This document shows, one piece after another, positions 9,842 through 50,418 of a stretch of DNA of 64,000 bases; the stretch's first letter is position 1, and each line of letters starts with the position of its first letter. The notes under the pieces were generated by a model. That model saw nothing but the letters and a program-made list of their open reading frames with translations. It did no database searches and was not told the DNA's origin. Both the position numbers and the translations under genes were made by a program. This DNA comes from Pseudomonadota bacterium (GTDB lineage Bacteria > SZUA-182 > DTGQ01): contig DAOURK010000004.1 of NCBI GenBank assembly GCA_030625085.1, positions 9,121 through 73,120 on the forward strand, in the 5' to 3' direction.

Positions 9842-10867
9842 TTAAACCTCCTGAGGACTTTGTTGCTCTAAAGGCACCATGATATGATGTTTTCTCATAA
9901 AGTACCCCAGATTTCTCCGATCAATTCCTAATAACTTTGCGGTCCTGCTCTTCACCCAATTGGCACGATCCAGGGCATTCAAAATCAAAATCTTCTCATA
10001 CAGCAATAACTGATTTCGCAAATTGAGATCTTTGGCCAGTATATTTTTGTCAACGTGAATATTGCCAATAATATCATTACTATTGGTTTGCTGACATTCC
10101 CTGATATGGGGGAGTAATGTCTCCGGATAAATTTTATCTCTGCTTCCAATAATCATGGCGTTTTCAATGACATTCTTCAATTCACGAATATTGCCGGGCC
10201 AGTCGTATTTTATCAATAACTCCATGGCCTCATCAGACACTCCTCTCACCATAGCATCCATTTCTCTATTATTTAACTGAATAAAATTCTCTATTAAAGG
10301 AGCAATATCCTCCTTCCGCTCTCTTAAAGGAGGCAAAAAGTTGGTTATTACAGTTAATCGATAATACAAATCTTCGCGAAAATTTCCCTTTTGGACTGCA
10401 TCTTTTAAAACTACATTGGTGGTAGCAATAACCCGGACATCTACCTTAATGGTTTTACTACTTCCTACTGGTACAATCTCCTCTTCCTGAAGCACGCGCA
10501 ACAATTTTGCCTGTCCTGCCAACGGCATATTCCCGATTTCGTCTAAAAGGATAGTACCTTTATTAGCCAGTTCGAAGCGGCCCTTTCTATCCGAAAGAGC
10601 ACCAGTATAAGACCCTTTCACATGGCCAAATAGCTCACTTTCCAGCAAGCTCTCACTCAAAGCGGCACAATTTACCTTGATAAAGGAACGATTATTTCGC
10701 AAACTGTGTTTGTAAATTGCATTGGCTACTACTTCCTTCCCTGTTCCACTCTCCCCTTGTATTAAAACCGTTGATTTGGTCTTGGCGATAATTCCAATGA
10801 GACGACAAATTTCTTTAACCTTCGCACTTTTCCCAATGATATCCGCTTGAATATAATCGTTATCCAT
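9842..10867 (-). CDS. Sigma54-dependent enhancer-binding protein (AAA+ plus Fis-type HTH) with no N-terminal sensor domain
   Basis: GESGTGKE, ESELFGHVKGSYTGA, LLDEIG, FREDLYYRL, WPGNIREL and C-terminal HTH. Start set at ATG 10867 (MDNDY) after a G7 RBS; the ORF track starts it at 10894. Confidence 0.92.
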   Translation of the reverse strand: MDNDYIQADIIGKSAKVKEICRLIGIIAKTKSTVLIQGESGTGKEVVANAIYKHSLRNNRSFIKVNCAALSESLLESELFGHVKGSYTGALSDRKGRFELANKGTILLDEIGNMPLAGQAKLLRVLQEEEIVPVGSSKTIKVDVRVIATTNVVLKDAVQKGNFREDLYYRLTVITNFLPPLRERKEDIAPLIENFIQLNNREMDAMVRGVSDEAMELLIKYDWPGNIRELKNVIENAMIIGSRDKIYPETLLPHIRECQQTNSNDIIGNIHVDKNILAKDLNLRNQLLLYEKILILNALDRANWVKSRTAKLLGIDRRNLGYFMRKHHIMVPLEQQSPQEV

Positions 10868-10935
10868 GATACCCCCCCAAATCAAGGTGAACAAATAACT
10901 TAGCTCTAATATTTTGCGTGTGTCTCTTTTTCTTG

Positions 10936-10951
10936 AGCAATTCCTATGCCA
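10936..10951 (-). promoter_or_regulatory. Sigma54 -24/-12 promoter
   Basis: Minus strand TGGCATAGGAATTGCT (GG-N10-GC), about 70 bp upstream of the activator start codon. Confidence 0.75.
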
Positions 10952-11298
10952 AAAAACGATTAAGGGGAATTTCTTAAATTATTTCAGGAGAATGTTATTA
11001 CTCAACCCAAAAATCCCTTTATAATTAATAAGTTACAAAGAAATAGTATCTATATAATTAATATACCAAAGCATAATTTAATCATGTTTGTAAAGCTATT
11101 AAGAGAGATTGTTATCAAACTATCCTGTATAATATTTCCTATATGAAAATAGTTGCATATTTATCTTATATTAGTAACTCTATTTCATATCAATTTATTT
11201 TCCCCTTCCTTACCTTCTGTATTGATTCTTTTATTTTAATGTGATAAATTTACGCCTATTAATTACCTTATGTATAATTAAAGGATAAATAGACGATC

Positions 11299-11841
11299 AT
11301 GAAAATTATTCCGTCGGATCCAAACACTCAACTGCCAGAATTAGAATGGTACGCTGTCCATACCCGATCTCGCCATGAACAAACCGTCTACGATCGACTT
11401 ATGTGCAAATCAATTCATACATTTTTACCCAAAATTGAAACCTGGAGTAAACGAAAAGATAGAGAAAAACGAATTCAGGTACCAATGTTTCGAGGGTATG
11501 TTTTTATCCAGGCCAATTTAGAAAACCGTCTTTGGCTTTCTGTTTTGCAAACACCTGGGGTTGCGCGGATAATTTCAAGCAACGGCAAACCTGTCCCTAT
11601 TCCAGAAAAGCAGATTGATTCAGTTCAGAAGGTTCTGGAAAAGGATACGGTCGTCACCCCCTACCCCTATTTAAATGTGGGGCAAAGGGTGAGAATTGTC
11701 GCCGGGGCCTTAAGAGGTGTTGAAGGCATTCTCCTTCGATTTAAATCCAACAAACAAAGATTGATACTATCAGTTGATATTCTTCAGCAGTCGATAAGTG
11801 TGGAAATGGATACGATCGAGGTTGAGCCAATAAATTTTTAA
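11299..11841 (+). CDS. UpxY/LoaP/RfaH-type NusG paralog (transcription antiterminator)
   Basis: WYAVHTRSRHE, VPMFRGYVF NGN domain; GQRVRIVAGALRGVEG KOW domain. Confidence 0.9.
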   Translation: MKIIPSDPNTQLPELEWYAVHTRSRHEQTVYDRLMCKSIHTFLPKIETWSKRKDREKRIQVPMFRGYVFIQANLENRLWLSVLQTPGVARIISSNGKPVPIPEKQIDSVQKVLEKDTVVTPYPYLNVGQRVRIVAGALRGVEGILLRFKSNKQRLILSVDILQQSISVEMDTIEVEPINF

Positions 11842-12004
11842 CTCCCATCAAAAATTATTGCCAGGATAAACAAAAAATAAAAATTGTTATAAATCATATT
11901 GTCCCGTCTAGTAATATTATTTGGTAATCAAACAGGCATATCCATTTCAGGGTCGCCACAAAGGATGAAAACATAAAGTCAATTTTCGGAACAAATAAAG
12001 GGCC

Positions 12005-48324: not shown

Positions 48325-48425
48325 GATGCATTCGTAAAAAATCGTTTTTAGAAAATTTGGGTTGCATAAATTCAAGAAGTTATGCTGTACACATACCCCC
48401 ATTTTGGACTTTTTACGAGAGCATC
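48325..48425 (+). mobile_element. 101-bp MITE, subfamily B
   Basis: TIR GATGCATTCGTAAAAA...TTTTTACGAGAGCATC; perfect 6-bp duplication AAAATT. Confidence 0.85.
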
Positions 48426-48613
48426 AAAATTGCTTTGATAATAAAAAAAATTTTAAACGATAATCAATGAATTATTTTTTCATGGTATGGAGAATGGAAA
48501 AAACCTAAAGGATTTAATCAAGGGATTTTAAGATAAAAGATTAGAAACTTAACAGGTCAGGAGGATTAACGAGGTTATTTAATGAGTAATAATTTTAATA
48601 TTTTTTAATACTT

Positions 48614-48714
48614 GATGCAATCGTAAAAAGTCAGATTTATAAAAACAGTGTCTAATAAAATCAGATAGTTATAATAATTGAAATGGTTAATTTGGGACTT
48701 TTTACGAGATCATC
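48614..48714 (+). mobile_element. 101-bp MITE, subfamily C
   Basis: TIR GATGCAATCGTAAAAAGTC...GACTTTTTACGAGATCATC; perfect 7-bp duplication AATACTT. Confidence 0.87.
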
Positions 48715-48802
48715 AATACTTGGTCATTTATTATTTATATTATTAACCAATTATGTTAAAAAATATTAAAATCTTAGGTTAGGTAAGGAGATTGAGTAAA
48801 AA

Positions 48803-49429
48803 ATGCTGGCTAGATATATAAAACCCTCTTTAGAAAAAATATTACTTCCGATCAGTAAAAAAATTCCGAATATTCTTACCCCAAACCATCTCTCGTTTTT
48901 TGGATCATTCCTTAATCTTGTGGTTGGAACTGTTTTCGCGTTGGGTAAAGTTCAATTAGCCGGTTTTCTCCTTCTGGTAGCCGGATTTTTCGATTTACTT
49001 GATGGGGCATATGCCCGATTTCTCGGTCAAGCAAAAAAATTTGGGGCCTTCTGGGACTCAGTACTCGATCGTTATTCCGACCTTTTCATTATAGGAGGGA
49101 TTATCTTCTATTTTGCCAGAGCCCATCAATCAACCTATGTTCTCTTAAGTATTCTAACCTTGGCCGGGTTTGTCACGATAAGCTACGCTAAAGCGAGGGC
49201 GGAAAATATCATAAAATCTTGTGATACCGGCCTCATGGAAAGGCCGGAAAGGATACTCGTTCTTTCAGCAGGTTCAATACTAAATAGTCTCAAGCCAACT
49301 ATGTGGATTTTAACTTTTTTATGCCACCAGACCGCCATCCAACGGATATGGTACACCTATCGACAAATCAAATATGAAGAGACAAAAGAAAAAACAGCGC
49401 GGATAAGCAAAGGAGAGGGAACTGTATAA
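48803..49429 (+). CDS. CDP-alcohol phosphatidyltransferase (PgsA-like)
   Basis: TPNHLS and DLLDGAYAR...[13 protein letters not shown] signature; multiple TM segments. Confidence 0.9.
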
Positions 49430-50418
49430 TGGAAGCCTATGACTCTTACAAAATCTTTTTCAATAAAGATTCTAATTGTCTGGATATTATAGATGAAGAT
49501 GCAATGCTTGAAGAATCTTTAAAAAATACTTCAAACTTAGATTCCAGTATAAAACTTGAGGAAAAACAAAAGACATTCTTTGAAGAATGCGACAATCAAG
49601 TACGTTCCTACCTCAGAGAAATTGGGCGGGTCCCTCTTTTAAGCAAAGAGCAGGAAATTAATATCGCCAAAAGCATTGCTAAGGGCAATGAAAAAGCCAA
49701 GGAGTTACTGATCAAAGCTAATTTACGCCTTGTAGTAAGTATTGCTAAAAAATACCTCAACAGTGGCCTGCCATTTTTAGATCTGGTTCAGGAAGGCAAT
49801 ATTGGTTTAATGAAGGCTGTAGACAAATTTGATTACCGTAAAGGGTGTAAATTCAGTACCTATGCTATCTGGTGGATTCGTCAATCAATCACCAGGGCCC
49901 TGGCGGATAAAGGGCGGACTATCCGCATCCCGGTTCATACCCTTGACGCTATTAAAACTATGATGAAAAGCCATCAAAAATTGATACAAAAAATAAAAAA
50001 AGAACCTACCCTTTCAGAAATCGCTTATGATATGGGGGTACCTGTCCAAAAAATCTACAACTTAGTTGGAATTATCAAAAATCCCATTTCGGTAGAAACA
50101 CCTCTAGATGAATTGGGAAACTACAACATTGTCGATTATATCGAAGATAAAAATAGCGCATCCCCAATGGACATAGTTATTGATTGCAATTTGATAGAGC
50201 AAATGCAAAAGGTCCTTAAGACATTAACAAAACGCGAAAAAATAATTATTGAAATGCGATACGGAATTGGCAACAATAAAGAACAGACACTGGAAGAGAT
50301 TGGTAGATACTTTCATCTAACCAGAGAAAGAATACGTCAAATTGAGGAAAGGGCCCTGCAAAGACTAAAACAACCAAATAGAGTTACACCATTGATGGAC
50401 TTTATTACCAAATCATAA
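49429..50418 (+). CDS. Sigma70-family factor, RpoD/RpoS-like but lacking region 1.1 (group 2-like)
   Basis: [59 protein letters not shown]...[14 protein letters not shown] overlap with the upstream gene. Confidence 0.92.

Follow-up and report, generated by a model that had tools for sequence, protein, structure and literature searches.

Does sigma-54 govern, in one bacterium, both the cell surface and a second sigma factor? The question is raised by a 64,000-nucleotide (nt) stretch of a Pseudomonadota bacterium (contig DAOURK010000004.1, positions 9,121 to 73,120, assembly GCA_030625085.1), hereafter the window, in which three sigma-54-type motifs face the gene of a sensor-less sigma-54 activator, the gene of a 735-amino-acid (aa) secreted protein, and a two-gene operon encoding a CDP-alcohol phosphatidyltransferase and a sigma-70-family factor. 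A preliminary description of this DNA had proposed that the three make up an undescribed cascade. The best overall explanation in our analysis is a relay from sigma-54 to a sigma-70-family factor that would act on the cell exterior, a reading for which we consider the case evenly balanced, and a cascade running through one activator is only partly supported.

The motifs were scanned with the pattern TGGCAC-N5-TTGCW, in which GG and GC lie 10 nt apart; the sigma-54 consensus quoted in a passage of PMC2725144 is mrNrYTGGCACG-N4-TTGCWNNw. Site 1 (TGGCATaggaaTTGCT, 10936-10951, minus strand), a −24/−12 motif of the sigma-54 type, scored 7/7 on our own consensus positions and is the only one close to a start codon, lying ~70 nt upstream of that of the activator gene. 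Site 2 (TGGCACagatgTTGCA, 41281-41296, minus strand) matched the consensus perfectly ~330 nt upstream of the 735-aa gene, and site 3 (TGGCAAtcataTTGCA, 48250-48265, plus strand) lay 537 nt upstream of the start codon of the transferase (~540 nt in round numbers). Mismatches to the pattern numbered 0, 1 and 1 across the three sites. The coordinates, the strands and the intergenic, gene-facing placement originally given for these motifs were all borne out, and the three are the sole matches in the window with at most one mismatch.

Such motifs could also be chance matches in AT-rich intergenic DNA with no promoter function, and their number lends weight to that view: shuffled sequences contained 1.29 matches on average against the three observed, 14 of 100 shuffles reached three, and at a tolerance of two mismatches the window held 24 matches when 24.07 were expected. 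As the match count alone is not significant, placement and conservation carry the weight. All three good matches were intergenic and directed toward a gene, whereas the remaining 21 of the 24, all weaker, fell within open reading frames (ORFs); given that intergenic DNA makes up 7,879 of the 64,000 nt, the probability of such a placement by chance is, by our own arithmetic, P ~0.001.

Conservation could be followed in two genomes. A contig scan with ComEC as a single-protein query found no relative, and a profile built from 32 of the 44 homologs of the 735-aa protein, run on genome contigs, returned 66 loci from ~12 metagenome-assembled genomes (MAGs), among which only two were syntenic with the window: L003 (JBFMGO010000034.1) and L006 (JAILZY010000002.1). 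Both keep the order of the 735-aa gene, ComEC, a peptidase, GroEL, the transferase, the sigma factor and HtrA, with identities to the window of 89-90% for GroEL, 64-66% for the transferase, 74-77% for the sigma factor and 42-43% for the 735-aa protein. At the position homologous to site 2, both relatives carry TGGCATAGATGTTGCA with an identical AGATG spacer, and site 3 is present as TGGCAATTGTTTTGCA in L003 and TGGCAATTATATTGCA in L006, its end lying 355 and 437 nt, respectively, from the start codon. The surrounding intergenic DNA was mostly too diverged for alignment, while the motifs were kept; a MAFFT alignment over the full site 3 intergenic region misregistered the motifs, and a motif-anchored alignment was used instead. 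Conservation in sister genomes, put forward in the preliminary description as a check, thus held for sites 2 and 3, both of which persist in L003 and L006 amid diverged flanks. An extension, TTGCATATC, that had been noted as common to two of the motifs is indeed shared by sites 2 and 3 in the window, but it differs in the relatives, where site 2 shows TTGCAAAAC and site 3 shows TTGCATTCT or TTGCATATT, ruling it out as a meaningful shared element.

Beyond the syntenic pair, the motif tracked the family of the 735-aa protein. The 66 loci (1,921,422 nt, both strands) contained 19 motifs scoring 7/7, 8 of which lay in the 41,099 nt immediately preceding family members, an enrichment of ~33-fold; perfect motifs also occur in L046 and L055, just upstream of the true starts. 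A motif scoring at least 6 was found within 700 nt in 15 of the 57 loci that have upstream sequence. The family is represented by many paralogs per genome, one MAG alone contributing ~12 loci. In the relatives, sigma-54-like sites are also found in front of genes for secreted beta-sandwich proteins, subtilases, a permease/PII fusion and pyruvate:ferredoxin oxidoreductase (PFOR). At L054, L059, L060, L061 and L064, and at L053 and L058, sigma-54-like motifs stand before CarboxypepD_reg/SdrD_B proteins (792-890 aa) and subtilases. The CarboxypepD_reg/SdrD_B and subtilase genes immediately precede 735-aa-family paralogs, an arrangement that suggests sigma-54-driven operons of secreted proteins in related MAGs.

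Two observations of this survey, like the match count, weigh against a sigma-54 relay: in 42 of the 57 loci no motif scoring at least 6 was found within 700 nt upstream of the family member, and a Pfam scan found no rpoN gene in the 64-kb window, the related loci not having been searched for one. For the motifs themselves, the persistence of sites 2 and 3 in L003 and L006 rules chance out for those two, and, together with the enrichment upstream of the family and the uniformly intergenic, gene-directed placement, makes it highly improbable that the motifs are devoid of promoter function. We conclude from the sequence comparison that real sigma-54 promoters are very probable at sites 2 and 3 and likely at site 1.

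The operon downstream of site 3 consists of two genes, the start of the sigma factor overlapping the stop of the transferase. The transferase (48803-49429, plus strand; 208 aa; PF01066) was initially labelled pgsA-like, a label that does not fit: the pgsA model TIGR00560 gave only 32.1 bits (cut-off 109.1), and two inositol-phosphate synthase models scored far better, NF040950 for archaetidylinositol-phosphate synthase with 147.7 bits (cut-off 180) and NF045883 for phosphatidylinositol-phosphate (PIP) synthase with 111.3 bits (cut-off 170), although all three stayed under their cut-offs. Its best sequence matches in the PDB, 6h53, 5d92 and 6wm5 (~5e-18), are all phosphatidylinositol or PIP synthases, and the enzyme looks more like a PIP synthase.

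The sigma-70-family factor (49429-50418, plus strand; 329 aa) contains Pfam regions 1.2, 2, 3 and 4 and lacks region 1.1. It matched RpoD/SigA structures in the PDB with 280-304 bits and RpoS structures with 203-213 bits, and it reached no NCBIfam equivalog cut-off, scoring 290.7 against 378.7 for the RpoS model TIGR02394, 407 against 555 for NF004208 and 313.7 against 354 for TIGR02393. The 28 homologs listed (P0166-P0193; 56-95% identity) measure 216-338 aa, or 300-338 aa when full-length, and none carries PF03979; the next matches listed are mostly full-length RpoD proteins of 560-570 aa that carry region 1.1. An RpoS identity is ruled out by the TIGR02394 score and by the closer match to RpoD/SigA structures, and the factor does not qualify as the primary RpoD/SigA, as region 1.1 is missing and the RpoD cut-offs are not reached. 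By sequence it is RpoD-like, of a group-2-like kind. RpoN-to-RpoS relays had been cited as a precedent when the cascade was first proposed; a conserved sigma-54 promoter does lie ahead of a sigma-70-family gene here, but the factor is not RpoS. Because that promoter is conserved in front of a sigma-70-family gene, a relay is plausible.

The DNA between site 3 and the operon tempers this reading. Leaders of 320-540 nt, as found downstream of sites 2 and 3, are unusually long, the site 3 leader spanning 355-537 nt across the three genomes, and in both relatives a near-consensus sigma-70-like promoter, TTGCGA-16-TATAAT, lies inside the leader of the sigma operon (L003 2927-2954 and L006 2707-2734, both minus strand), 74-92 nt downstream of the sigma-54 motif. 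Both facts count against control by sigma-54 and would fit an operon transcribed mainly from a proximal sigma-70 promoter, with site 3 giving a leader or small RNA or a mere boost and the relay weak or absent. Since the relatives carry this sigma-70-like promoter, sigma-54 need not be the sole route to the sigma factor. Pointing the same way, two copies of a hairpin-forming repeat of ~105 nt (48323-48427 and 48609-48727, plus strand) are inserted in the window leader, where they occupy the stretch where we found no counterpart of TTGCGA-16-TATAAT. Further copies of the repeat lie after the sigma gene (50798-50916, minus strand) and at ~28007-28110 (minus strand) and ~57105-57209 (plus strand), making five in total; all are intergenic, fall into two subtypes and have inverted ends of ~21 nt (TGATGCAWTCGTAAAAA ... 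TTTTTACGAGANCATCA), and the corresponding positions of L003 and L006 have none. The repeats resemble miniature mobile elements or hairpins of the repetitive extragenic palindromic type.

Several features argue against a predominant sigma-70 promoter. Scans for sigma-70 promoters and terminators over three window regions gave the same counts as shuffled sequence, so that sigma-70-like matches are no commoner than chance in the window, and no terminator-like site separates site 3 from the operon there. Rfam and tRNA scans detected no known RNA family and no tRNA in the window, its long leaders included, and the site 3 leader contains, in our reading, no conserved small ORF. The sigma-54 motif, moreover, is conserved along with the operon, as is a block upstream of it with the form ATGCAAA...GAAAAnTTTTTCAyACT (48016-48055, plus strand, from the motif-anchored alignment). 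We therefore regard transcription mainly from a proximal sigma-70 promoter as quite improbable, and sigma-54 control of the operon from site 3 as the preferred reading.

At site 2 the gene that the motif faces encodes the 735-aa protein (38744-40951, minus strand; 733 aa when read from the second ATG). Its N-terminal, signal-like hydrophobic helix ends in VMA-Q, and it had no Pfam or NCBIfam match. An AlphaFold2 (AF2) model with a mean pLDDT (predicted local distance difference test) of 74.6 consisted of beta-sandwich domains with C-terminal cadherin/Ig-like repeats; a Foldseek search retrieved the SraP adhesin (2.9e-13) and many cadherins and protocadherins, the matches covering the C-terminal ~280 residues, and an Atlas search gave Big_9, PKD, Ig and cadherin leads that were all weak (score ≤0.82). 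Judged from the predicted fold, the protein looks secreted and surface- or adhesin-like, and its signal-like helix and adhesin/cadherin-type model agree with its earlier description as a secreted protein. Its 44 homologs all derive from metagenomes or MAGs. With 42-43% identity to its syntenic counterparts where GroEL retains 89-90%, it evolves fast, as surface-exposed proteins often do.

The leader of the gene (40952-41270, minus strand; ~320 nt) contains a mini-ORF, MISKKKREKGVDNK (41059-41103, minus strand), preceded by a strong Shine-Dalgarno sequence, AGGAGGTGATC. The mini-ORF, of 14-17 codons, is conserved in L003 and L006, and downstream of it comes a second box resembling AGGAGGTG; the mini-ORF may encode a leader peptide or serve as an element of translational control. 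A consensus RNA fold of this leader drew on three sequences, two of them near-identical, and is too thin a basis for a structural claim.

Upstream of site 2 lies a conserved non-coding block (41480-41597, minus strand), a candidate enhancer or upstream activating sequence, which matched L003 and L006 with 89% identity over 64-65 nt in blastn. The dyad TATGAAA-N4-TTTCACA lies within it at 41488-41505; both relatives have a perfect TATGAAA-N4-TTTCATA palindrome in its place. A 126-codon ORF (41227-41607) that overlaps site 2 had to be considered in this region, as it is open in L003 and L006 too, its stop being the TAG inside TGGCATAG. Substitutions between L003 and L006 were spread over its codon positions as 32/30/28, against 29/17/244 in the GroEL control, and the changed codons comprised 8 that were synonymous only and 53 that were non-synonymous. 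It had no family match beyond a sub-threshold one to LEDGF, and tblastn found it only at the three syntenic loci. Because the substitutions fall evenly on the codon positions, a small gene is ruled out and we read the region as non-coding.

The gene downstream of site 1 (9842-10867, minus strand) encodes a 341-aa bacterial enhancer-binding protein (bEBP) with matches to PF00158 (1.8e-69), PF25601 and PF02954 (5.1e-11), that is, an AAA+ sigma-54 interaction domain, a lid and a Fis-type helix-turn-helix (HTH). Translated from the ATG at 10867, it begins MDNDY and has just 18 residues N-terminal of the AAA+ domain. It carries GESGTGKE and DEIG, and its L1 loop (residues 85-90) reads GSYTGA, in which T, G and A were invariant across 20 aligned homologs; the HTH helix region is conserved in its clade. 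GSYTGA is typical of the window activator and its closest orthologs, GSFTGA of most other members of the sensor-less clade (one has GSYTGA), and GAFTGA of a few members of that clade and of more distant homologs; a tyrosine in place of the phenylalanine is tolerated in GAFTGA-type loops. Among the matches listed, the best 31 full-length homologs (P0046-P0077; 59-97% identity) are all 332-347 aa long, and full-length homologs with a PAS domain first appear at 57% identity or below. Because all 31 share this length, the sensor-less form is, by sequence, that of a conserved clade and no truncation. The lack of a sensor domain, part of the original account of this gene, was confirmed by the domain scan and holds throughout the clade.

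The activator stayed under the PspF cut-offs (TIGR02974, 263.5 against 443.55 bits; NF008622, 240.4 against 529), and a Pfam scan of 49 window ORFs, which left small ORFs aside, found no PspA-family match; on these two grounds an identity as PspF is ruled out. PspF, HrpR/HrpS and LafK are type Ic bEBPs, which have no N-terminal signal domain, according to a passage of PMC3162934. Like them, the window activator combines an AAA+ sigma-54 interaction domain with a C-terminal HTH and has no sensor. Unlike PspF, besides its low score against the PspF model, it has GSYTGA rather than GAFTGA in the L1 loop and a sigma-54-type promoter of its own, the pspF gene being transcribed by sigma-70.

On the same strand, downstream of the activator gene, lie selA, selB and a TIGR04190-type B12/radical-SAM gene (4310-9750, minus strand). 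The gap between the activator gene and selA contains only a weak terminator-like hairpin (9786-9801), and in the 324-nt gap between selA and selB ARAGORN detected no tRNA. Divergent from the activator gene is a stand-alone NusG paralog of the UpxY family (11299-11841, plus strand; 128.3 bits, cut-off 100). Specialised NusG paralogs usually work on long leaders. As both target operons have long leaders, a link between them and this paralog is conceivable.

Do the three promoters answer to this activator? We compared the upstream regions of the three window sites and of the two sites in each of L003 and L006, seven in all, measuring positions in gene orientation from the T of TGGCA. No 7-mer other than TATGAAA/TTTCATA occurred in six or more of these regions. 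Of its 23 copies in the window, 8 are intergenic; three of these overlap a start codon, and the remaining five each fall 190-290 nt upstream of one of the three promoters. At site 1, inverted half-sites (11142-11189, minus strand) start at −238 for TATGAAA and −197 for TTTCATA, with ATGCAA just ahead of the latter, in the region common to the activator gene and the divergent UpxY-like gene. At site 3, on the plus strand, TTTCATA lies at 48045-48051 (−205) and TATGAAA at 47960-47966 (−290). With the dyad of site 2, TTTCAYA therefore occurs in the same orientation at all three window sites, at −197, −198 and −205 for sites 1, 2 and 3. The distance from the first half-site to the second, which is the upstream one, is 11 nt at site 2, 41 nt at site 1 and 85 nt at site 3, spacings that come near to whole helical turns. 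The relatives carry TTTCACA upstream of site 3 at −196 (L003) and −191 (L006), with TATGAAA at −275 in L006, and at sites 2 and 3 the element falls inside the best-conserved non-coding blocks.

The element also recurs across the lineage. In the loci and the window together, 17 of 43 intergenic sigma-54-like sites had a same-strand TTTCAYA between −320 and −20, and its density there was 0.0017 per nt (22 copies over 12,814 nt), compared with 0.00038 for the intergenic background. The sigma-54-like sites in front of the amino-acid permease/PII fusion and of PFOR had no copy upstream. A search for motifs upstream of the three promoters, likewise envisaged in the preliminary description, thus yielded an element ~200 base pairs (bp) upstream of all three, but one whose shuffle statistics are modest. 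Such sharing hints at one common activator, and it makes the adjacent sensor-less protein the best candidate for that role.

Against a single activator stand the limits of this pattern. The positional coincidence across the three window regions was modest throughout, at 0.21 in a 7-mer test (1000 shuffles) and reached in 65 of 2000 and 105 of 2000 shuffles in 8-mer and 9-mer tests; the element was picked out post hoc from AT-rich sequence, and the related sites lack independence from each other. L003 has no exact TATGAAA at site 3, and at site 2 the element of both relatives lies at −137 rather than near −200, because the window has extra DNA between dyad and promoter. In addition, long activators of 956-959 aa lie within a few kb of paralogs of the 735-aa family (L042 4608-7478 and L048 2122-5001, both minus strand), so other activators may serve the family. 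These proteins are ruled out as orthologs of the window activator by their length and by their identity of 48% in the AAA+ part.

These observations can also be read as real sigma-54 promoters each served by a separate activator, in which case the sensor-less activator would serve itself or other targets, there would be no single cascade, and TTTCAYA would be a general architectural or co-regulator site, bound, for instance, by a bending protein or by some other transcription factor. Such an arrangement would account for an element found upstream of 17 of 43 sigma-54-like sites from ~12 MAGs at distances varying from −68 to −304, for the sensor-domain architecture of the long activators beside the L042 and L048 paralogs, for the modest shuffle tests of element position, and for a site 1 element that, lying between divergent genes, could equally serve the UpxY-like gene. 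It sits less well with three window copies of TTTCAYA that are co-oriented and whose distances agree within 9 nt, with the location of the element in the most conserved non-coding blocks, and with its absence at sigma-54-like sites before metabolic genes. We view separate activators as a possibility, though a doubtful one, and grant the same tentative standing to the proposal that one activator drives all three promoters.

Taking these observations together, we propose the following course for a relay from sigma-54 to the sigma-70-family factor. On each −24/−12 element the sigma-54 holoenzyme would stay in its closed state, to be remodelled through ATP by an AAA+ activator that binds ~140-300 bp upstream. 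Site 1 would feed the activator's own gene, amounting to positive autoregulation; site 2 would drive the fast-evolving, secreted cadherin-like protein through its leader of ~320 nt; and site 3 would drive the PIP-synthase-like lipid enzyme together with the RpoD-like sigma factor without region 1.1. In this way sigma-54 would switch on a surface protein, a change in membrane lipids and a second sigma factor able to extend the response. Because the activator has no sensor domain, its control would lie in its own abundance or in a partner protein. We infer transcription from the sites, the identity of the activator that binds, its autoregulation and a downstream sigma regulon from sequence features. 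A bolder version, in which a self-amplifying, lineage-specific switch operates as the activator binds the dyads and induces itself, the cadherin-like protein and the inositol-lipid enzyme with its sigma factor, we consider unlikely.

The proposed relay is reminiscent of known ones, above all the Rrp2-RpoN-RpoS pathway of Borrelia burgdorferi, a cascade from sigma-54 to sigma-S (passages of PMC2940757 and PMC11109971). As far as those passages describe it, the two share a sigma-54 promoter directly upstream of a sigma-70-family gene and, as predicted for the window, would share the need for an activator and an output in surface proteins. Unlike Rrp2, a response regulator with a receiver domain, the window activator has no sensor domain; unlike RpoS, the window factor is RpoD-like and under the RpoS cut-off. 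It shares an operon with a lipid enzyme, and the surface-protein gene has a sigma-54 promoter of its own and would not have to rely on the second sigma factor, a difference predicted from sequence alone. A sigma-54 promoter upstream of a sigma-encoding operon is also found in flagellar hierarchies leading from sigma-54 to FliA (sigma-28); in Geobacter sulfurreducens, a passage of PMC2725144 reports, the top-scoring RpoN promoter precedes an operon containing fliA. Here, in contrast to those hierarchies, there are no flagellar genes and the factor is RpoD-like, not sigma-28. Among the literature matches listed, no paper combined sigma-54, 'group 2 sigma' and enhancer-binding, which is no proof of absence. 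The word undescribed, used when the cascade was first proposed, is accordingly true of the organism only, the kind of circuit being known from Borrelia and the flagellar hierarchies.

In a passage of PMC3162934, Francke et al. (2011) describe sigma-54 as a controller of the bacterial exterior. The predicted targets in the window, a secreted surface-type protein and an enzyme of phospholipid synthesis, fit this view, and the relatives add subtilases and secreted beta-sandwich proteins. What those authors describe is a general tendency, not the present circuit, and the passages of PMC3162934 at hand contain neither the 735-aa family nor this lineage.

Elsewhere in the window, a Rieske/cytochrome b/multihaem cytochrome c cluster and a complete Bat-type operon (MoxR, DUF58, BatA-like VWA proteins, TPR and BatD) occupy 1418-4288 and 53008-61701 (both plus strand). 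Together they point to an anaerobic or microaerophilic lifestyle.

The present status of the finding is that of a well-supported annotation, not a new principle. The best-known relays from sigma-54 to a second sigma factor are those of Borrelia and the flagellar hierarchies, and here two of three promoters are backed by conservation, extending the picture of sigma-54 as a regulator of the exterior to a lineage without cultured relatives and yielding a small, testable set of DNA sites with one candidate activator. If the activator were autoregulated and shared, the locus would offer a compact model for bistable change of the surface: positive feedback would make a bistable switch and produce a differentiation-like change of the cell surface, and the many paralogs with sigma-54 promoters of their own would supply alternative surface coats.

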